Assembly (NCBI GenBank): GCA_900551705.1
Contig: URWY01000001.1
Span: 87,953-151,952, forward strand
DNA length: 64,000 nt
Reading direction: 5' to 3'
Origin: an uncultured Bacillota bacterium
GTDB taxonomy: Bacteria; Bacillota; Clostridia; Christensenellales; UBA1242
In this document: positions 44,283 through 53,066 of the stretch, piece after piece
Layout: each line of letters opens with the position of its first letter
Numbering within the stretch: the stretch's first letter is position 1
The notes under the pieces: model-generated
Databases searched by the model: none
Seen by the model: only the letters and a program-made list of their open reading frames with translations
What the model was told of the DNA's origin: nothing
Program-made: the position numbers and the translations under genes

Positions 44283-44372
44283 TTATTTCTCCTATATATA
44301 GTTTACACACTTTACTAAAAATATCAAAAGAAACAAGCAAATTTTTAATAATAAAATAATTATAAAAATTTG

Positions 44373-44401
44373 TTGATTTTTTTTTAGTTTTAAAATATAA
44401 T
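44373..44401 (+). promoter_or_regulatory. sigma-A type promoter for SRP RNA
   Basis: TTGATT (44373-44378), 17 nt spacer, TATAAT (44396-44401). This puts the predicted start about 7 nt downstream, at the 5' end of the SRP RNA closing helix. Confidence 0.55.
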
Positions 44402-44407
44402 ACTAGC

Positions 44408-44675
44408 GTTGCACTAGGTGGGGAGTTAGCGGTGCCCTGAACTTGCAATCCGCTATAGCAAGGCTGAATGGTTGGTGCGGCGGTTAAAAATTTTTGGATG
44501 AATTTTATCTTTTTATGATGAAATCAAGGTCTTATGCAATGTTTTGCTGTGAACCATGTGAGGTCCTGACGGAAGCAACATTAAGCAGATGTAAGCATGT
44601 GATGTAAGGAAGCTTTGGTGGAGTAAAAGGGTGGGGTGGCTCATAAGTTTTTGCCGACAAGTCAATCTGTGCAAC
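44408..44675 (+). ncRNA. ffs: signal recognition particle RNA, long (Bacillus/Alu-domain) type
   Basis: Helix-8 core GAGGUCCUGACGGAAGCAAC...AAGCAGAUGUA parallels the conserved AGGUCCGGAAGGAAGCAGC...AAGGCAGAUGA of bacterial SRP RNA. 5' Alu-like GGUGCCCUGAAC...GCAAUCCGC. 5' GTTGCAC pairs with 3' GTGCAAC. The roughly 268 nt length fits the long type. Confidence 0.85.
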
Positions 44676-44679
44676 TTTT

Positions 44680-44718
44680 GTTCCCATAGTTAAACGGATA
44701 TAACATTCCCCTCCTAAG
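44680..44718 (+). pseudogene. 5' half of a disrupted tRNA-Arg(CCU) gene (acceptor 5' strand, D-arm, anticodon stem 5' strand and loop)
   Basis: GTTCCCA-TA-GTTA-AACGGATA-TAAC-A-TTCCC-CTCCTAAG, then unrelated sequence. The matching 3' half lies at 51751..51794. Confidence 0.8.
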
Positions 44719-44788
44719 AGTATGTAATAGGGAATTTATATCCTTTAATTACGGGGTTTTCGTGGGTTTATGATTGAATTTTTGAAAG

Positions 44789-44813
44789 CATCAATAATTT
44801 TATCAATAGTTTT
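44789..44813 (+). repeat. arm-type repeat, left end of the element (CATCAATAATTTTATCAATAGTTTT)
   Basis: Near-identical direct copy at 51596-51619 (one T fewer). Each copy holds two ATCAATA units about one helical turn apart. Confidence 0.55.
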
Positions 44814-44849
44814 GTCCTAAATATAGTGTGAAATCCTAAAATTTATTAT

Positions 44850-44924
44850 GTTCTCGTAGTTCAACGGATAGAACAAGAGCCTCCTAAGCTCTAGATGTGG
44901 TTTCGATTACCGCCGGGAACACCA
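44850..44924 (+). tRNA. tRNA-Arg (anticodon CCU), intact, CCA-encoded, carried inside the element
   Basis: Manual cloverleaf: acceptor GTTCTCG/CGGGAAC (one G-U), D-stem GTTC/GAAC, anticodon stem AGAGC/GCTCT, loop CTCCTAA, T-stem GTGGT/ACCGC, loop TTCGATT, discriminator A, CCA. Confidence 0.9.
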
Positions 44925-44928
44925 AACT

Positions 44929-44954
44929 GACCACCATTTAAGGTGGTCTTTTTC
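44929..44954 (+). terminator. rho-independent terminator after the element-borne tRNA
   Basis: GACCACC-ATTTAA-GGTGGTC followed by TTTTT. Confidence 0.6.
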
Positions 44955-45034
44955 TATAGTAAATCATATTTTACTCCTTTTTCTAAACTTAACATTAAAA
45001 GACAACATATCTATTCAGTATGGTTTTAGTATGA

Positions 45035-46447
45035 TTATTTCAAAAACTTGTCCATAACCTGTGAAGCCTCATCATTATCTTCGTCTAAGAAATGGGCATA
45101 AGTTGATAAAGTCACATTTGGGTTTGCGTGTCCAGCAAATTTTGCCACAACTTTAACTGGTACTTTTTCTCTTAGTAATGTTGTAATAAAGGTATGTCTT
45201 AATGAATGACAACCAATATGTCTAATACCACCTTTATTTAAAACATAGTCAAGCCATTGAGTTATTGTTCGTGGGAATAATTGTTGCCCTGTTATTTTTA
45301 CAAAAATCCATTCGTTTTCATTGTCCCATATTTCATAAAGCCTATTGTGTTCGTTGTCATACCAATTTTTGTATTCAAGTATGATTTCCATTAAACTTTG
45401 TGGAATAGGGAGTGTTCTTATAGATGTTTTTGTTTTAGGTGTTTTGGTGACTATGCCATATTTTGAGCCAGTATAGGTTGAACTTCTGTTGATTGTAATC
45501 TTTTTCGTATCCCAATTTATATCTTTCCATTGAAGCCCAACAAGTTCACCTTGTCTTAGACCTAGTGCTAAAAACATTGCCACCACTGTTTTCTTTTTTA
45601 AATCTTCAACATTATTCATTGATTTTAAAGTGTTTTGTAATTGTTTTGTTTCTTCAAGTGATAAGATGTCTTTCTCTTTTATTTCACCGCTTAGATTGTT
45701 TGGTTTTAAAACAAACTTACAAGGGTTTTTATCTATCAAATCAGTTTCTATTGCAAAGTTGAAAATTGCGTTTAAAACTTTGCGATAAACAAGTTTACTA
45801 CCTTTGGAATATGGTCGTTCTTCTACTTTCTTTGTAAAGTATTCGTTTGCATTGAGTTTTAAAGCATTGCAAATCTTAATTGCATTTATCCATTGAATTG
45901 TCTTACCTTTTTTAGCATAAAAAACTGTATAAGTGCTAATATCATTTTCTCTGCAAAGTTTGTCAACATTTGTGTGTTTTATTATCTCATCAAGTGATTT
46001 CTTCAAAACTGCTGTTTCTTTTATGATTTTCTTGCTGTTTAAATAGTCTAGAATTTCTTGAATATCGAGTGGCTGAATTTCTTTCATTTTAAGGTTGCCT
46101 ATTAAAACATTTAAATCTTCCACAATTTTTGTGTTTCTTACAACTGATGTTTTTGAGTCCTTTTGTTCGCTTCTTCTTAACCATTTTAAAGAGAATTCTT
46201 TAAAAGTAATTTCTTGCTTATTGCGAAGAAATGCTTGTTTTTGTTCTGCAATTTTATTTCTTACTTCGTTCTCAAAGTTGCTAGCAAAAGCATTTAATCT
46301 GCGTTTGTTTTCATTTTCGGTTATACCTTTTTCACGAGTATATGTTTTGTAAAATATCTTTTGTTTTGAATCTTTAACAAACACTTGAATGTCGTAAACT
46401 TCTGTTCCATCTTTTTTTATTCTTGGTTTTTTAGGTATGCTTGCCAT
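45035..46447 (-). CDS. int: tyrosine-type site-specific integrase (phage/ICE type with N-terminal arm-binding-like domain)
   Basis: 470 aa. Catalytic signature GLRQGEL (Arg I), HSLRHT (H-x-x-R), GHAN, and STYAH (Tyr). The N-terminus DGTEVYDIQVFVKD resembles Tn916-type arm-binding domains. Confidence 0.92.
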   Translation of the reverse strand: MASIPKKPRIKKDGTEVYDIQVFVKDSKQKIFYKTYTREKGITENENKRRLNAFASNFENEVRNKIAEQKQAFLRNKQEITFKEFSLKWLRRSEQKDSKTSVVRNTKIVEDLNVLIGNLKMKEIQPLDIQEILDYLNSKKIIKETAVLKKSLDEIIKHTNVDKLCRENDISTYTVFYAKKGKTIQWINAIKICNALKLNANEYFTKKVEERPYSKGSKLVYRKVLNAIFNFAIETDLIDKNPCKFVLKPNNLSGEIKEKDILSLEETKQLQNTLKSMNNVEDLKKKTVVAMFLALGLRQGELVGLQWKDINWDTKKITINRSSTYTGSKYGIVTKTPKTKTSIRTLPIPQSLMEIILEYKNWYDNEHNRLYEIWDNENEWIFVKITGQQLFPRTITQWLDYVLNKGGIRHIGCHSLRHTFITTLLREKVPVKVVAKFAGHANPNVTLSTYAHFLDEDNDEASQVMDKFLK

Positions 46448-46448
46448 T

Positions 46449-46715
46449 TTATCTTTCTCCTTTTTGTAAGTAATTTAGAAGGTCATCAAAGTTGACTAAA
46501 ACTTTGTTTCCAGCAGTTAGAGAAATGACTTTTTTAGAACTACAAAGACAGCGAATAAAATAGGTAGATAGGCAAGTGTTTGGGTCTATCTCCTTTAATT
46601 CTTTTATCGTGGCATTGATTGTTCTATATCTTGCAGAGTTTTCATTTATCTTTGGAGTATCGCAATTTTGTGTTTCGTTTTGTTTCTTTATGGTTAAATC
46701 TGTAAATGAACGCAT
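46449..46715 (-). CDS. putative excisionase/small DNA-binding protein (88 aa)
   Basis: ORF track gives 46449..47054. The internal ATG at 46715 has an AAAGGAGGG SD 9 nt upstream. The stop lies 1 nt before the int start. The C-terminal ...LTAGNKVLVNFDDLLNYLQ resembles small Xis-like proteins that precede integrases in Firmicute elements (assignment unverified). Confidence 0.4.
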   Translation of the reverse strand: MRSFTDLTIKKQNETQNCDTPKINENSARYRTINATIKELKEIDPNTCLSTYFIRCLCSSKKVISLTAGNKVLVNFDDLLNYLQKGER

Positions 46716-47118
46716 AAAAAGAAACCCTCCTTTTAAATTTAATTTGGGCTTCTTTTTGGTTGCACTCACGCACGAAAGAAAAAGACAGCTAAAAGCTTTC
46801 GATTTAAATACCATAAAAATATTAAATACTTGCTTTAGCTGTCTGTTGACTGTGCTGATGCTATTTATTAAAAACTGAAGCTGCCTGTTGGCTTTGCTAA
46901 TGTTGAAAGTATTATAACACATTTTTAACAAAAAGCAATCAATTTGATAAAGATTTTTTAAATTTTTTTGAGAACTAAAAAAGACATTCCTTAAGAGAAT
47001 GCCTTTTTGGCTATAATCTTGAATCGTTATACTTTGTAAAGTTGCTTGTTTCATAGCAATATTGTAGTATAAGCATTTTACAAAGTAAAGTGCAGCAACC
47101 TAAAAAATCGAAACTTTA

Positions 47119-47358
47119 TTATTTTTCTTTGTTTACATTTTCTTCTTTCTTTTGTTTCTTGTTTTTCTTGACTTGTAAAATAAACATTACGATAGACAAA
47201 ACAAGTGAAGCAATAATAATGACTGCCAGAATAGGGACAACTGCTGTGTCAAAGGCAAGTAAAGTTTTATCTGCAACATTTTGACTTTTAACACTGCTTG
47301 CCACTGTGATAACAAAAAGTATTAGCAAAATCATTTGTGAAAGATTTACCCATTTCAT
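47119..47358 (-). CDS. small secreted/membrane protein (79 aa)
   Basis: AAAGGAGA SD. N-terminal signal-like helix, a second TM near the C-terminus, then a K-rich tail. Confidence 0.5.
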   Translation of the reverse strand: MKWVNLSQMILLILFVITVASSVKSQNVADKTLLAFDTAVVPILAVIIIASLVLSIVMFILQVKKNKKQKKEENVNKEK

Positions 47359-47544
47359 AGTTTTTCTCCTTTTAATAAATTTTGATTATTATAAAAAAGC
47401 ATTTTCGTGCTGTAAAGCCTTGCGACCTAAACTTTTTTAATTTCTCAAATCTTTGCTTGGCAGTGTCTTTTTCTTTAGGTGGTATATTTTATTGAATTGT
47501 TTGTAAACAAGTGAGCAAAGTGTAAGCAACAAAGGCAAGCAGTA

Positions 47545-47916
47545 TTATTTATTATCTTTTTTGCTTTGCAGCCTTAAATACCTATAAACAAGATTTCTGT
47601 CTTGCTCATCAAATCTAAAAACACCGAAACCACTTGTCAGTTGTGCATAATTCGGGTTGCCTATTCTTTTTAATAATTTTTGTCCTAGTGGAGTTATGCG
47701 ATATTCTTCGTTTTCAAACAATAAGGAGTTTTCACTGATAACTTTTGCCTTGTATTGCTTGTCTTTTGTAAACTCTATAATATCTCCAACTTTTAGACCG
47801 AGTTTATAAAAATTGATTGCTTTTTCGTGTTTAGTTAAAAGTTTAGGCTCACAACAAACACAAATATCTTCATTGTCTTGAATCCAATTCAATTCACATT
47901 TTGGACATCTTTTCAT
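47545..47916 (-). CDS. zinc-ribbon protein with a C-terminal domain paralogous to that of the upstream GIY-YIG protein
   Basis: 123 aa. CPKC...CVCC at the N-terminus. The C-terminal roughly 80 aa (GDIIEFTKDKQYKAKV...ITPLGQKLL...SGFGVFRFDEQDRNL) aligns by eye with the tail of the 47913..48569 product. ATGA start/stop overlap. Confidence 0.6.
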   Translation of the reverse strand: MKRCPKCELNWIQDNEDICVCCEPKLLTKHEKAINFYKLGLKVGDIIEFTKDKQYKAKVISENSLLFENEEYRITPLGQKLLKRIGNPNYAQLTSGFGVFRFDEQDRNLVYRYLRLQSKKDNK

Positions 47917-48569
47917 TTTGCACCGCCGTTTAATCTTTCCCAGCGGTCATAAAGATTTTTGTCGTTATCATCAAACTTGAAAACACCGAATCCGCTTCCA
48001 AGTTGTCTTGCTTGTTCTTCACTTTGTCCAACTTTTTGTAAAAGCAAAACACCGAGTGGAGTTAAAAAATATTCTTTATTTTCAAACATAACTGTTCGTT
48101 CTCCACAAACAGTTGCTTTGTATTGCGGGTCAAAAGTGAATTCAATAATGTCTCCATTTTTAATACCCATACTATAAAATGTTTTTCTTGGAGCTTTCTT
48201 TCCGTGCTGCTTTGTAAGTGGGGTTTCAATGGCTAAATTTTCATTGTAAATAATTTCCGCATCATCAAGTAAACTCGCAATATCTTTCATAATTGAAACC
48301 GCATCTTCTGGTTCAATATTAAAAAATTCTCGTTTAGGGTTTATGCGTTTGTCGGGTGCAAGTTTGCCGATAAGTCTATGTATCATCGTTTCCGCTTGCT
48401 TGTATTTAGTGGTTTTTAAAACTGCATACATTTCAAAAGGCAAGGGAATGCCAGTTGCTTGTGAAAGTTCCCAAATTCTTCTATCTAAATTGTCAGTTTG
48501 ACCAATTTTTACCCAATTTTCTTTAAAACAAGGGTTGGTCAGAACATAAACATATCCTTTATTTTCCAT
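47913..48569 (-). CDS. GIY-YIG superfamily (T5orf172/MUG113-like) protein with an extra C-terminal domain
   Basis: ORF track starts at TTG 48641, inside a leader hairpin. ATG 48569 gives MENKGYVYVLTNPCFKENWVKIGQTDNLDRRIWELS... (GYVY...KIGQT...R...E pattern of T5orf172). C-terminal domain GDIIEFTFDPQYKATV...LTPLGVLLL...SGFGVFKFDDNDKNL. Confidence 0.65.
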   Translation of the reverse strand: MENKGYVYVLTNPCFKENWVKIGQTDNLDRRIWELSQATGIPLPFEMYAVLKTTKYKQAETMIHRLIGKLAPDKRINPKREFFNIEPEDAVSIMKDIASLLDDAEIIYNENLAIETPLTKQHGKKAPRKTFYSMGIKNGDIIEFTFDPQYKATVCGERTVMFENKEYFLTPLGVLLLQKVGQSEEQARQLGSGFGVFKFDDNDKNLYDRWERLNGGAK

Positions 48570-48732
48570 AAAATAAAAGTGCCCTCCAGTTAAGGAAGGC
48601 ACAGTCCTATTCAAAACAAACCTTCCATTGTTGCGACACAATTCCTAGCCTAGTAGGTGGAAGCATTTGTATGAAAGGCGAAAAAAGCCATTCCTACTTT
48701 GGCTAAAAATATTGAATTGTGTCGCAATTGTA

Positions 48733-48762
48733 TGATAGCACATTTTTCATGAAAAAGTCAAG
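48733..48762 (-). promoter_or_regulatory. candidate extended -10 promoter for the GIY-YIG operon
   Basis: Minus strand reads TTGACT, 18 nt spacer, TGCTATCAT. The transcript would begin at the 14-bp inverted repeat TTGCGACACAATTC (48715-48728 / 48632-48645). Confidence 0.4.
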
Positions 48763-48810
48763 AAAAGTAATTTATGTTCTTAAATTTTTACTTTTCTTGA
48801 ATATTGACAA

Positions 48811-48963
48811 TTAGGGTCTCTGTTTATTATTAATATTATTTGTAGTGGATTGATTATTAATATTATTTCCAACTATTTCTTTACAGCTTTGATTTAATGT
48901 TTTCCCCCTATTATTTGATGATTGATTTAAAGTTTTACCATCATTTAACTTTTTTGTTATCAT
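48811..48963 (-). CDS. micro-ORF (50 aa), N/Q/S-rich with GKTLNQS duplicated
   Basis: ATG 48963 is preceded by a strong TAAGGAGG SD 8 nt upstream and lies 4 nt after the stop of the 572-aa membrane protein gene. Sequence MITKKLNDGKTLNQSSNNRGKTLNQSCKEIVGNN... Confidence 0.4.
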   Translation of the reverse strand: MITKKLNDGKTLNQSSNNRGKTLNQSCKEIVGNNINNQSTTNNINNKQRP

Positions 48964-48967
48964 AAAA

Positions 48968-50686
48968 TTAATCCTCCTTAAAACTATATGTAACGTTGTT
49001 GAGATAATAATTAACACAATTATTAGAAAGCCTTATGCCTTCAAAATTAACTTCTATATCTAAGTTAGTTATAATGTTTATCATACTTACAAGTTGCATT
49101 GATATATTTAAAATCAATGCATCATTTTGAATTAAATTTTTTAATTTTTCCACACATTCTTTTCCAGTAAAAACTAGTTCCATTGAATAAGTATCTTTAT
49201 CGCTTTGAACGACATTGGTCTGAATATTATCTTTTAAAACAAAATTTAATTCTTCAAATCCAGTGTTTTTATTAGCTGTTAAGCTTGTAATTTTTATTTT
49301 ATTTAAAGGATAGTTCGTACTTTTATAAAACAAAGTGATTGATAAATAATTCTCATCAATTTTATCTTTTTCGTGAGCAATATAATAATTACAACTCATA
49401 TTATTTGAATTATCAATGAAATTTTTATTTAAGCCGGAGTGTATTTTGCAGTTAAATGTTAACAATATATTAGAATACTTTTCGTTGCGTGTTTTTTGAT
49501 TTTCATTCTTAATTGTCCAAGCAACGCCTCCCAAAGTCAAAACTCCGCCACAAACGGCAGCAAACACGTTTATTATACTATTAAACAAACTATTGGTTGC
49601 AGTCGCTGACTTATCATAAAAGACCTCATAAATAAAAAACACCCACAAAACTAGCGTAAATAAAATGGCAATTATAAAAATATAAAAATATTTGTATGGC
49701 TTCTTATTTAAATTAATGTTAAAAAATGCAGTGTATAAAATTGATATTGTCCAAATTACGCACAATACACCCAAAGTTGCTCTATATACTATTGATAACC
49801 AACCTGTTTCTTTATTAATAGAAAACTTTTCTATTATCAAAAGAACTGTTGATAACAACAAAGAAATTGATAAAATTTCAAATTTGTTATTTAAAAGTTT
49901 TGTGTCGATAATCATTGACCCTATTGTAGTTGCAAGCAATGTTATATTAAAAAATATGGTAAAAACAAGTAAAACGATTGAATTTGAAACATCAATATTC
50001 CAAATAAACAAAATAGGCAACACATTTACCATTACCCCTAGAAAAAAGAAAGGAAACGAACTTAATTTATCATAAACATTTCTTTTATCGATTTGATTAA
50101 TCTTCTTTTTTAGAATAGCATAAAATATTGTGAATATAAAAATTAAAACAGAAGCTATGCAAGTATATGTTATTGATAACCAAAGCTTATCACAATAACT
50201 AACAGCAGCCGAAATAATCAAATTAGGAATTAAGAATACAAATATTGACCAAAAAGCAAATTTTGTTTTTCTGCGTATTTTTGCTTCTTTTTCTTTTATT
50301 TCTAGTATTTCATATAATTCTTTTAATGACTTATTAGTAGATAAAAATTCTTCAAAGTTTAAATTCGTTATATTAATAAGTTTATCATAGGTGCTTTTTG
50401 CTTCAATTTCCATATCATTAAATTTTGTTTGCAAATCTGCGTCATTATTTACATTGAAAAATTTATAAAAAATAGTTTTATCTTCTACTTTTTCAAATAT
50501 GACTTTAAGATTTTTAAAAAGTGCAAGATTTGTTAATGCTGAATCAATAGATTTTTTTAAACTCTCATCACTACAAATTTGTTTTCTTGTTCTTTCATAA
50601 GAAAGAAAAAGTTCCTTTTTGATTTTTTTAACTTCTTTTAGTGAAACATTTAAATCTTTAAGAGCTTCATAGTTTATTTCTTCCAT
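48968..50686 (-). CDS. large polytopic membrane protein of unknown function (572 aa)
   Basis: N-terminal roughly 135-aa charged helical region, about 8-9 hydrophobic helices, and a C-terminal roughly 170-aa soluble domain. No family recognised. Confidence 0.6.
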   Translation of the reverse strand: MEEINYEALKDLNVSLKEVKKIKKELFLSYERTRKQICSDESLKKSIDSALTNLALFKNLKVIFEKVEDKTIFYKFFNVNNDADLQTKFNDMEIEAKSTYDKLINITNLNFEEFLSTNKSLKELYEILEIKEKEAKIRRKTKFAFWSIFVFLIPNLIISAAVSYCDKLWLSITYTCIASVLIFIFTIFYAILKKKINQIDKRNVYDKLSSFPFFFLGVMVNVLPILFIWNIDVSNSIVLLVFTIFFNITLLATTIGSMIIDTKLLNNKFEILSISLLLSTVLLIIEKFSINKETGWLSIVYRATLGVLCVIWTISILYTAFFNINLNKKPYKYFYIFIIAILFTLVLWVFFIYEVFYDKSATATNSLFNSIINVFAAVCGGVLTLGGVAWTIKNENQKTRNEKYSNILLTFNCKIHSGLNKNFIDNSNNMSCNYYIAHEKDKIDENYLSITLFYKSTNYPLNKIKITSLTANKNTGFEELNFVLKDNIQTNVVQSDKDTYSMELVFTGKECVEKLKNLIQNDALILNISMQLVSMINIITNLDIEVNFEGIRLSNNCVNYYLNNVTYSFKED

Positions 50687-51070
50687 ATTAAACCTCTTTT
50701 ATATTTTAGCACATTTTTCTTGTAAAATGTCTATTTTTGACAAAAATAATACAAAAATAAATAATCTATAGTTCAACTGTAGTAGCATATACTAGTAGAT
50801 GAATATATTAAAACTATACTTTTTGTGGTTGCAATGGGGTTGCAACTGAGTAAATCTGTAGTTCTAACGAGTATAGACAACATATAGACAAAGTATAGAA
50901 GCCCCTTGTTTTCAACAAGAGGCTTGCAAGTAATTACTTCTATTTTCTTTTTTTCTTTATGCACCTTGTTTTACTTACAAGGTGCATTTAACAATTATTT
51001 GTAATCTAGGTGTCTACAAGTAGCGTGCAAATAATAACTAAGTTCTAATCTAGTTTCTTGCTCCTTGTTG

Positions 51071-51547
51071 CTAACGCCAATTTTTAGGGTTATTGTTTTC
51101 AGTATAATCTGCAATATACTTAAGCCATTCCAAATCCAGTTTATACCATCTAAGTTTGTTTTGTGGAATATATGGGTGTGTTCTTAAAGTGGTTTCAATA
51201 AACATATTATCACTTAAAAATCTTATGCTGTTTTGAATTGCTTTTCGCCCAAGTCCGTATTTGTTCCAACGAGATTGTGTCATATAAAACCATTCGTGTG
51301 GTTTCTTACTGCCATTTGTGATAAAGAATTCATTTTGTAGTGCACAATAAACATCTGCTATATTTCTTGCTTTAACTCTATTCATTTTGCTTTTTGAAAT
51401 AGTTGTGATATAGTTATAGAAGAATTGAAATACTCCAATAGGCTTTATTGCTGCTCCACTTTGTTTTTGTATTGACATAAACAAGTCCCTTGCTTGCTCG
51501 TGTGGTAGTTTCATTTCTTGTGTGGTTTTGATTTGTTGATTATTCAT
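51071..51547 (-). CDS. hypothetical protein, possible winged-helix (RepA_N/replication-organiser-like) DNA-binding protein
   Basis: 158 aa. AGGAGCAAAAAA SD. The segment WFYMTQSRWNKYGLGRKAIQNSIRFLSDNMFIET...LRWYKLD resembles wHTH modules of plasmid/ICE replication initiators (weak, by eye). Confidence 0.45.
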   Translation of the reverse strand: MNNQQIKTTQEMKLPHEQARDLFMSIQKQSGAAIKPIGVFQFFYNYITTISKSKMNRVKARNIADVYCALQNEFFITNGSKKPHEWFYMTQSRWNKYGLGRKAIQNSIRFLSDNMFIETTLRTHPYIPQNKLRWYKLDLEWLKYIADYTENNNPKNWR

Positions 51548-51595
51548 TTTTTTGCTCCTTTTTATTTTAATTTCTAAAAGGACAAATGACTATTT

Positions 51596-51619
51596 CATCA
51601 ATAATTTATCAATAGTTTT
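51596..51619 (+). repeat. arm-type repeat, right end of the element (CATCAATAATTTATCAATAGTTTT)
   Basis: Direct copy of 44789-44813, 131 bp inside the right core repeat. Confidence 0.55.
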
Positions 51620-51750
51620 TTATGAAAATTATTGCAAGATACAAAAGTTATTGAACGAAATCTTAAAAACAAGTTTTAAACATTCAAAAACTACTGAACA
51701 AAATGAAAGATATAACATATTTTGTTCAAGCCCCTCAGGACGAGTGAGTT

Positions 51751-51794
51751 CTCCTAAGGGAAAATTAGGGGTTCGATTCCCTTTGGGAACGCCA
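51751..51794 (+). pseudogene. 3' half of the disrupted tRNA-Arg(CCU) gene (anticodon loop, anticodon stem 3' strand, T-arm, acceptor 3' strand, CCA)
   Basis: CTCCTAA-GGGAA-AATT-AGGGG-TTCGATT-CCCTT-TGGGAAC-G-CCA. GGGAA pairs with TTCCC, and TGGGAAC pairs 7/7 with GTTCCCA of the 5' half at 44680. Confidence 0.8.
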
Positions 51795-51797
51795 AGC
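51774..51797 (+). repeat. 24-bp direct repeat, copy 1 (tRNA T-loop to CCA plus AGC)
   Basis: CGATTCCCTTTGGGAACGCCAAGC is identical to 52071-52094. Confidence 0.85.
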
Positions 51798-52070
51798 GAA
51801 AATTGTCGAGCTTATGGCTCGATTTTTTGTTACCAAAAAATACAGCGCTTTTTTGCTCGCAATTTTCGCTATACCGACCAAACGCAAAATTGTAAAACAA
51901 TTTTGGTCGGTACTCTCGTGCGAAGAAATTTCTGCGAAGGAAGTGATGGAGGTTAATGATAAGTATAAAGGAATTGAACTAAGCGTTAAGAAAAAATTGC
52001 CAGTGGCAAGTTTTTTAGCGCTGGCGTGAAAGCGAGCATCGACCAGCAACGGGTTGCTAGCGAAGCGGAG

Positions 52071-52094
52071 CGATTCCCTTTGGGAACGCCAAGC
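52071..52094 (+). repeat. 24-bp direct repeat, copy 2 (orphan tRNA-Arg 3' end)
   Basis: Identical to 51774-51797, 297 bp downstream, followed by the terminator at 52102-52133. Confidence 0.85.
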
Positions 52095-52101
52095 ACTTGC
52101 G

Positions 52102-52133
52102 ATGGAGAGCGATTAGCTCTCCATTATTTTTTT
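52102..52133 (+). terminator. rho-independent terminator (probable native terminator of the ffs/tRNA-Arg locus)
   Basis: ATGGAGAGC-GATTA-GCTCTCCAT followed by TATTTTTTT. Confidence 0.6.
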
Positions 52134-52259
52134 GCTTGCAAAAAAATTGCGGGCAAAAGCCCGCGCGCAAGTGCGGGGTACAATTTCATCACATACTGAA
52201 TTGTGGCATAAATTCACCATTTTAAATATCATGTATTAATGATAATATAAGGAGTTTTT

Positions 52260-53066
52260 ATGCCAAAAACAAATTTTTGCAATAGCCAAAATAATGACGA
52301 CTGGAAACAATATATTGAAAATTCCAATTCAAATAATATGCAATATATTACTGGGCCTATGGGACCAACAGGTCCTGCTGGTGCAACGGGTGCAACGGGT
52401 CCAACTGGCGCCCAAGGGTTAATGGGAGAAACTGGTCCTAAGGGTGACACTGGTGCAACAGGGTTGCCTGGTGCAAATGGTTTAAACGGAGCAACAGGAG
52501 CGGTTGGCCCGCAAGGTGTGACAGGCCCTCAGGGGGTGATGGGCCCGCAAGGTGCGACTGGTGCAAAAGGAGATACAGGTCCACAGGGAGAAATTGGGCC
52601 TCAAGGACCAACTGGACCAAAAGGAGAAATGGGGGTTCAAGGGCCAATTGGGCCAAGGGGTGAAGATGGGCAAATATCCAATCAAAATGCAACAATATAT
52701 AGCATGGCTGGGCAAGATTTAACAAGTGGCAATCCATTAACACTTTCATCTATTAAAACAAACAATGGGCTTATCGTGGGCGGAACAACAATAACCGTGC
52801 CTGCAACTGGAACATACATTGTTAGTTATTGTATGAATAAAGCGACAAATGCAGCAGGAACAGATAGCGTTTCAATCGCAATAGACGGAACAATGGATAG
52901 AACAACTTCAAGACCATTAAGCGACTCGTCAACAACATGTGGTCACTTTGTAATGAATTTAGATGAAGGAAATGCACTTTCGTTGGTCCCGGTTGTAATT
53001 AACGCGACAAGGCTTGAAGGAAGCGGAGGACCATGTGCGACTCTAACAGTCATCAGAATTGCGTAA
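52260..53066 (+). CDS. collagen-like triple-helix repeat protein with a BclA/C1q-like C-terminal domain
   Basis: 268 aa. TAAGGAG SD. 35 uninterrupted G-X-Y triplets (nt 52353-52667). The C-terminal roughly 130-aa beta-rich domain (...[16 protein letters not shown]...ATLTVIRIA) resembles the BclA C-terminal jelly-roll. Confidence 0.85.

Follow-up and report, generated by a model that had tools for sequence, protein, structure and literature searches.

A mobile element of gut Clostridia splits the host tRNA-Arg(CCU) gene in its anticodon loop and carries a complete, different tRNA-Arg(CCU)

What becomes of a transfer RNA (tRNA) gene when a mobile element enters its anticodon loop and does not put the gene back together? 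The question is raised by a 64-kb stretch of DNA from an uncultured Bacillota bacterium (contig URWY01000001.1, positions 87,953 to 151,952; hereafter the window), in which two halves of an arginine tRNA gene with the anticodon CCU, tRNA-Arg(CCU), lie on either side of an integrase-encoding insert that contains a second, complete tRNA-Arg(CCU). An earlier reading of the letters of the window (the original prediction) had proposed that an integrase element split the host gene, failed to rebuild it and compensated by importing a whole isoacceptor. The best explanation is very similar: an element of what is here called family A very probably integrated into the anticodon loop of the host gene without repairing it, its own tRNA would now substitute for the host's, and the target is re-created in the process.

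The two halves are those of one gene. When they are joined in silico, ARAGORN calls a 75-nucleotide (nt) tRNA-Arg(cct) with 7/7 acceptor pairs and 5/5 anticodon-stem pairs. In the window as it stands, the same program calls a single tRNA, the complete tRNA-Arg(cct) within the insert, and makes no call at either junction (Table 1). The coordinates first given for the halves hold, and so does the claim that they form one tRNA. Contigs with an empty site, retrieved through the 238-amino-acid protein encoded in the flank, carry this gene undivided: in six independent metagenome contigs or metagenome-assembled genomes (L002, L003, L004, L006, L007 and L010), an intact tRNA directly follows the signal recognition particle (SRP) RNA gene and matches the joined halves at 75/75 positions, scoring 63.9 bits against the Rfam tRNA model (gathering score 29). 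A search of relatives for such sites had been suggested by the original prediction itself. The occupied state also recurs, since an independent 7.3-kb contig (L011) holds an identical copy of the element (100%) with both host halves; it was considered as a circular form of the element and rejected as such, being an integrated copy. On these sequence comparisons, the insertion is real and polymorphic among strains, and is not an assembly artefact.

The insert measures 7,040 bp and has an 8-bp core at both of its ends. This core, CTCCTAAG, is the only sequence that the left and right attachment sites (attL and attR) have in common. It is found three times in the 64 kb, at 44711, at 44881 inside the internal tRNA and at 51751, against a chance expectation of 0.39. 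Each arm of the element contains a pair of ATCAATA repeats, lying some 80 bp in from the left end and some 145 bp in from the right, in near-identical blocks that share an 11-mer, TATCAATAGTT, present in the window at 44801 and 51607 only. The left arm is conserved in six related loci (L012-L016 and L018), and the right arm is likewise conserved in other element copies. From their arrangement, the ATCAATA repeats are putative arm-type sites of the integrase, in keeping with the arm-like repeats noted at the outset. For the attachment site of the free element (attP), the predicted family A junction is ...GACGAGTGAGTT-CTCCTAAG-AGTATGTAATAGGG.... The integrase gene (int) encodes a tyrosine integrase by both Pfam and PHROG, as had been supposed.

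The host gene is not rebuilt by the element, which bears out a central point of the original prediction. The sequence behind the attL core is the element's arm; it is not tRNA-like and contains no tRNA 3' half. Because the element supplies no such half at attL, the host gene stays split. What the element does supply is a tRNA of its own, 70% identical to the host tRNA with differences in both halves. It scores 62.5 bits against the Rfam model, and it is followed by a terminator, a hairpin and T-run at 44929-44948, that is kept in all A-family copies. Across seven distinct element tRNAs, 21/21 cloverleaf pairs are kept; no pair is broken, and at 13 of them pairing is preserved by compensatory double changes. 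This pattern of substitution indicates that the element tRNAs are under selection for function. In the long open reading frames (ORFs) of the window, AGG is used at 3.0 per 1000 codons, 5-fold more rarely than AGA, and some AGG decoder is therefore needed. That the element tRNA serves the codon usage of the element itself was considered and rejected, as AGG makes up 2/1042 codons in two large element ORFs.

Table 1. Features of the integrated element and of the host locus, in window coordinates.
Feature	Position	Strand	Remarks
Host large SRP RNA gene	44409..44674	+	Rfam RF01854, 153 bits; 3' end lies 5 nt before the tRNA 5' half
Host tRNA-Arg(CCU) 5' half	44680..44718	+	GTTCCCATAGTTAAACGGATATAACATTCCCCTCCTAAG; acceptor strand, D arm, 5' anticodon stem and anticodon loop to position 39; identical to the first 39 nt of the empty-site gene
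attL core	44711..44718	+	CTCCTAAG; anticodon loop C32-A38 plus G39
Left (P') attP arm	44719..44849	+	~130 bp; two ATCAATA repeats at 44790 and 44802 within CATCAATAATTTTATCAATAGTTTT
Promoter-like site of element tRNA	44800-44827	+	TTATCA-16-TATAGT
Element-borne complete tRNA-Arg(CCU)	44850..44924	+	ARAGORN; Rfam 62.5 bits; CCA encoded
Intrinsic terminator of element tRNA	44929..44956	+	GACCACC-loop-GGTGGTC plus T-run
Tyrosine integrase, 470 aa	45035..46447	-	Pfam PF00589 5e-27, PF14659; PHROG 1 7e-62; N-terminal extension, SAM-like domain
88-aa ORF abutting int	46449..46715	-	Called as a gene in L011, L151 and L152
79-aa small membrane-like protein	47119..47358	-	Within the conserved left backbone
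123-aa protein	47545..47916	-	PDC-S57 C-terminal part, PADLOC 8e-11; resembles the C-terminal domain of the next gene
T5orf172 / PDC-S57 candidate anti-phage defence protein	47913..48641	-	Pfam PF10544 3e-14; PADLOC PDC-S57 6e-51
572-aa protein, hydrophobic repeats	48968..50686	-	Variable cargo; not in the L012, L016 and L018 copies
158-aa conserved right-end protein	51071..51547	-	Predicted winged-helix DNA-binding fold, model pLDDT (predicted local distance difference test) 82.5
Right (P) attP arm	51597..51750	+	Two ATCAATA repeats at 51597 and 51608; conserved end ...GCCCCTCAGGACGAGTGAGTT
attR core	51751..51758	+	CTCCTAAG; same 8 bp as attL
Host tRNA-Arg(CCU) 3' half	51751..51794	+	CTCCTAAGGGAAAATTAGGGGTTCGATTCCCTTTGGGAACGCCA; loop, 3' anticodon stem, variable loop, T arm, acceptor strand, G73 and CCA
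Older second feature at the same tRNA	51775..52094	+	~297-bp integrase-less insert between 23-bp direct repeats (51775-51797 and 52072-52094)

The same element recurs in other species, inserted into other tRNA-Arg(CCU) genes. When species-representative genomes were scanned with an alignment of A-family integrases, integrases at least 94% identical to that of the window were found in eight species of uncultured Clostridia, one of them labelled 'Christensenella sp. UBA7862', and each of these matches has a tRNA-Arg(cct) just past int. At the six related loci named above, the same left arm, tRNA, int and right arm lie between the 5' and 3' halves of a host tRNA-Arg(CCU) that differs by species and stands in a different genomic context; when joined, the host halves of L013, L016 and L018 are called tRNA-Arg by ARAGORN. 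The targeted host tRNAs are mutually 60-78% identical and have in common only the anticodon loop with the C31-G39 pair. For example, the L013 element aligns with that of the window at 98.8% over 7.1 kb, and the rest of the L013 locus has no alignment to the window.

Two integrases that are 95-96% identical to the window's (L017 and L019) stand in the classical layout: the tRNA beside int is intact, an identical copy of its 3' half lies at the far end, and there is no separate 5' half, no left arm and no extra tRNA. L017 lacks the left ATCAATA pair and may on this account be a deletion derivative that arose when the junction core recombined with the tRNA core. Truncated integrase remnants were also observed beside an intact tRNA in L019, L058 and L061. 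More distant integrase relatives in viral contigs, at 36% identity or less, lie beside other tRNAs or a transfer-messenger RNA (tmRNA). One 30%-identical integrase (L155) is found beside a tRNA-Arg(cct) with the loop TTCCTAA; its contig also encodes a portal protein and a primase-helicase, and it may belong to a phage or satellite relative.

The anticodon loop of tRNA-Arg(CCU) is shared as a target by elements with quite different integrases. Family B (L001, L008 and L009; integrase 29% identical to the window's) occupies the same loop of the same host gene, with the core CTCCTAAGGG and a AAAAACCATACT repeat in both arms. It carries its own, different tRNA-Arg(CCU), a rolling-circle Rep, a helix-turn-helix regulator and an AAA ATPase, and a search of the 8.7-kb B element against Pfam and PHROG returned no virion, packaging or lysis families. 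Family C (L020-22; integrase 39%) has the same layout and its own tRNA, and family E (L154; integrase 44%) is represented by a complete 4.5-kb copy with matching host halves. Two further types, D (L151-153) and X (L022), are known from their left arms only. The core and the layout are common to families A, B, C and E and to arm types D and X. Some pipelines read through a stop in the gene calls of L001 and L009, as if another genetic code applied (int of 469 vs 462 amino acids, MgsA of 426 vs 420 amino acids); the ORFs of the window are intact in code 11.

Elements of these families insert into one another through the tRNAs that they carry. In L005, a B-type element has the host 5' half on one side and, on the other, the 3' half of an A-type element tRNA, beyond which follows an A integrase 99% identical to that of the window. 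In L022 and L153, the innermost complete tRNA and int come after a pair of 5' halves in succession, and each of these halves has a different arm behind it; in L148 an A arm lies behind the 5' half of a B-like tRNA. In L151 and L012, the expected pairing order of outer and inner halves is not kept, and because of this mismatch the two loci indicate core-to-core recombination between nested, co-resident elements. In L145, an A element splits a gene whose 5' half is identical to that of the A tRNA itself, and host-like genes adjoin this half; some hosts therefore seem to own the A tRNA type natively, which hints at the source of the element tRNA. A broader proposal can be drawn from these arrangements, and we regard it as equally apt to stand or to fall: at least five families of small elements in gut Clostridia, three of them with an identified integrase and two known by the left arm only, would use the invariant 7-nt loop of tRNA-Arg(CCU) as a crossover site independent of host sequence, and the carried tRNA would both compensate for the disrupted gene and re-create the target, forming a self-renewing landing pad at which elements nest, leave together and recombine core-to-core into composites.

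For the element of the window, the series of steps with the best support can be set out. The tyrosine integrase recombines attP with the attachment site in the host gene (attB) within the 8-bp anticodon-loop core and leaves the host gene unrepaired, with its 5' half behind the SRP RNA gene and its 3' half 7 kb away; comparisons of junctions and empty sites show both steps. The carried tRNA would then take over AGG decoding. It would probably be transcribed from its own promoter; since it points the same way as the host gene, transcription that starts at the host SRP-RNA/tRNA promoter would probably reach it as well. Precise excision would be expected to regenerate the host gene. The carried tRNA in turn becomes the next target, into which later elements insert to give nested arrays, as the compared loci show. 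Since only the anticodon loop must match, host range would be independent of the tRNA stems: any genome with a tRNA-Arg(CCU) would be open to the element, and the stem sequences of its host would be irrelevant. Strict dependence of the host on the element, to which the original prediction had pointed, is overstated, as an excision that cuts precisely at both cores would give back the host gene unchanged.

Several points weigh against this account. That the element tRNA is expressed, charged and needed for host fitness is something we infer from sequence. A tRNA-Arg(UCU), if encoded elsewhere in the genome, could read AGG by wobble, and tRNA-Arg(CCU) may be dispensable if it does so. The sequence flanking the core, where core-type binding of the integrase is expected, is not conserved between attP and the various attB sites, which leaves site recognition by the integrase unexplained. 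Because L017 and L019 are classical in layout, carriage of a whole tRNA is not obligatory for this integrase. An exact search of viral contigs for circular attP junctions of families A and B returned none, a result that is uninformative on mobility. Finally, the 88-amino-acid ORF, a candidate excisionase from its position beside int, has no family match in Pfam, NCBIfam or PADLOC; of the items that the original prediction listed, all are present in the sequence except that its xis is no more than plausible.

Among the alternatives, the one that survives best concerns the function of the carried tRNA and not its existence. The carried tRNA might not be mainly a compensator; it could serve as a portable attachment site or landing pad, or as a counter to anticodon-loop nucleases, with the loss of the host tRNA being tolerated. 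Such a role would suit the insertion of other elements into element-borne tRNAs (L005, L022, L148, L151 and L153), the standing of tRNA-Arg(CCU) as a minor isoacceptor, the rarity of AGG relative to AGA, and the presence of a candidate defence gene among the cargo; an anti-defence idea is also raised in PMC10865867. Nevertheless, all of the roughly 20 copies keep an intact cloverleaf through compensatory changes, together with the anticodon of the disrupted gene, as compensation predicts, and a landing pad has no obvious benefit to the resident element. We therefore consider this alternative unlikely, if worth keeping in mind.

Far less probable is a classical tRNA-targeting island, in which the displaced 3' part would be supplied by the element and the internal tRNA would be the restored host gene. 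The int-adjacent tRNA indeed lies where a restored target usually would, and in the usual orientation, and L017 and L019 have that layout. At this locus, however, there is a separate host 5' half 170 bp upstream of the complete tRNA, with arm sequence that is not tRNA behind it, the internal tRNA departs from the host gene in both halves (70% identity), and the empty-site gene equals the 5' half plus the 3' half, which refutes the classical arrangement here.

An assembly artefact, whether a chimeric join or a fortuitous resemblance of the halves, is more improbable still. The window comes from a metagenome-type assembly, the halves in L012 do not match, and some metagenome matches are due to chance: of the eight loci found in a metagenome scan with the attL-junction 19-mer, four (L143, L146, L147 and L150) diverge right after the 19-mer. 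This explanation is refuted by the same junctions in independent samples and assemblers (L011, L013, L144, L149, L151 and L152) and by the 75/75 match of the joined halves to intact genes in six contigs. Equally remote is a split tRNA of the Nanoarchaeum type, in which halves are the normal state, have complementary leaders and separate promoters, and would be transcribed apart and joined in trans with no need of a replacement: two precise halves with a break in the anticodon loop would fit, but conspecific contigs hold an intact gene, direct reading finds no complementarity between the sequence after the 5' half and that before the 3' half, and the break is bounded by the att arms and features of an integrase, with the element's right arm, and not a promoter, preceding the 3' half.

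Integration of family A without repair, with substitution by the carried tRNA, is thus retained, and the remainder of the element can be described on that basis. When copies are compared, a 3.2-kb left block and a 1-kb right block are conserved and the middle is variable. The variable cargo begins near 47930 with the T5orf172/PDC-S57 gene, which is partly conserved between copies. The 123-amino-acid ORF and the C-terminal part of the T5orf172/PDC-S57 protein are paralogous, being encoded by DNA repeats (D1, D5 and D10) that lie 368 bp apart and are 71-81% identical. From these resemblances, the cargo would comprise a candidate single-gene defence system and an extra copy of its C-terminal domain. 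The 572-amino-acid protein received no assignment from Pfam, NCBIfam or PADLOC, and neither did the 158-amino-acid protein, which lies inside the conserved right block; the model of the latter has weak PDB matches to PadR, MarR and the DnaD N-terminal domain (E >= 0.01), and its fold is generic. Searches of the A element returned no virion, packaging, lysis or replication families (Pfam and PHROG) and no relaxase, origin of transfer (oriT) or conjugation genes (Pfam, PHROG and NCBIfam).

The host side of the locus has features of its own. A promoter scan places a promoter-like site at 44373-44401, upstream of the SRP RNA gene. In a low-threshold Rfam search, the SRP RNA and the tRNA were the only matches within 44300-52400. 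Because only 5 nt separate them, the SRP RNA and the tRNA are probably co-transcribed as one transcript, in which case tRNA processing would set the 3' end of the SRP RNA. In an occupied locus, a tRNA half and about 170 nt of element sequence come between the SRP RNA and the next complete tRNA, and 3' maturation of the SRP RNA may be altered in carriers. At the other end, the 23-bp repeat GATTCCCTTTGGGAACGCCAAGC, present at 51775 and 52072, corresponds to the tRNA from the T-loop to the 3' end, and the insert of about 297 bp between the two copies parts the tRNA from its original terminator at 52104-52133. Among the empty-site strains, this insert is present in L004 and L006, absent at that position in L002, L003 and L010, and otherwise arranged in L003 and L007. 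The segment resembles a remnant or miniature element whose target was the T-loop/3'-end sublocation of this tRNA. Just past its intact tRNA, L002 holds another insert, which encodes a serine recombinase, an N6/N4 methyltransferase and a type I restriction R subunit and includes an endonuclease VII-like gene. The surroundings of the tRNA are a general hotspot of mobile DNA. Elsewhere in the window, the segment 40500-42500, upstream of an MgsA-like gene, has a G+C content of 0.23-0.25 against about 0.30-0.38 around it.

These observations widen tRNA-dependent integration beyond actinobacteriophages, to small elements in which no virion genes can be recognised and to uncultured Clostridia that are abundant in the human gut. 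They also bear on a question left open in the 2024 paper discussed below, namely whether carriage of a whole tRNA frees the choice of attB from host sequence: natural evidence for such freedom is given here, because a near-identical element (99% between copies) is found in tRNA genes that are 60-78% identical. In practical terms, island finders that seek a restored tRNA and a displaced fragment would misplace the boundaries of such elements and would count the element tRNA as the host's. An integrase that needs only the 8-bp loop of every tRNA-Arg(CCU), delivered with a replacement tRNA, is moreover a candidate broad-host-range integration tool.

How the element stands among known systems depends on the feature that is compared. 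Integrases of tRNA genes are said to have been sorted by Williams in 2002 into sublocation classes. The integrases of P22 and 16-3 are classical users of the anticodon loop, and the classical common core measures 40-50 bp. The present element resembles them in its crossover within the 7-nt loop, in the position of int beside a tRNA and in the displaced 3' fragment at the far end; it differs in an attP without a 3' tRNA segment contiguous with the core, and in a core of 8 bp. When it is set against the lambda-type heterobivalent system, the points of comparison are the putative arm-type ATCAATA pairs on both sides of the core and the 88-amino-acid ORF that abuts int. In tandem island arrays and in accretion by integrative mobilizable elements and cis-mobilizable elements (IMEs and CIMEs), repeated use of one tRNA target gives arrays and integrase-less remnants. 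The insert of about 297 bp resembles such a remnant. However, the nested newcomers described here enter the resident's own tRNA and come to sit inside the resident, whereas classical newcomers reuse the restored host gene and lie side by side.

The closest parallel is tRNA-dependent lysogeny, described for the actinobacteriophages Fionnbharth, LeBron, Gaia, Cain and others (Guerrero-Bustamante and Hatfull, 2024; PMC10865867). In these phages, a tyrosine integrase uses an 8-17-bp core in a host tRNA gene that is not reconstructed, and the cognate phage tRNA was found experimentally to be required for viable integrants; sibling phages with closely related integrases have a classical 43-49-bp core and no carried tRNA (PMC10865867). 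The likenesses are several: a tyrosine integrase, an attB within a host tRNA gene, an 8-bp core and a carried cognate tRNA (in families B, C and E as well), and close integrase siblings in the classical layout. In contrast to those phages, the carrier here measures 5.4-8.7 kb and has no recognisable virion genes, so that the mechanism fits and the word 'lysogeny' does not. The host belongs to the low-GC gut Clostridia, and the target, tRNA-Arg(CCU), is minor and possibly non-essential. The carried tRNA is placed immediately between the attP arm and int and points in the direction of the host gene. Finally, one element is found in many host tRNA backgrounds, elements nest in element tRNAs, and complementation is deduced from sequence.

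Precedents outside the actinobacteriophages also exist. The Lactobacillus johnsonii prophage Lj965 is cited as an earlier case (PMC10865867; see also PMC3714127), and a similar tRNA substitution is reported for Sinorhizobium (PMC11476347, PMC12429752). Lj965 and the phage-related sequences of Sinorhizobium meliloti share with the present element a tRNA that is not rebuilt and a cognate tRNA that is carried (PMC10865867, PMC3714127, PMC11476347). They differ in being prophages or phage-related and in belonging to other phyla, and the available parts of these papers do not describe nesting or multi-host evidence for them. Likewise, several features of the present case were not found in the cited papers: the kind of element, its host clade and its target isoacceptor, a tight attP-tRNA-int module, evidence from many hosts, several families that converge on one loop, and nesting in tRNAs carried by elements. 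The original prediction called the arrangement an unusual solution, which holds against the textbook case and yields to the fact that such a solution was already described and tested experimentally in 2024 (PMC10865867). The basic mechanism is not new: it matches tRNA-dependent lysogeny (PMC10865867) and has precedents in Lj965 and Sinorhizobium.

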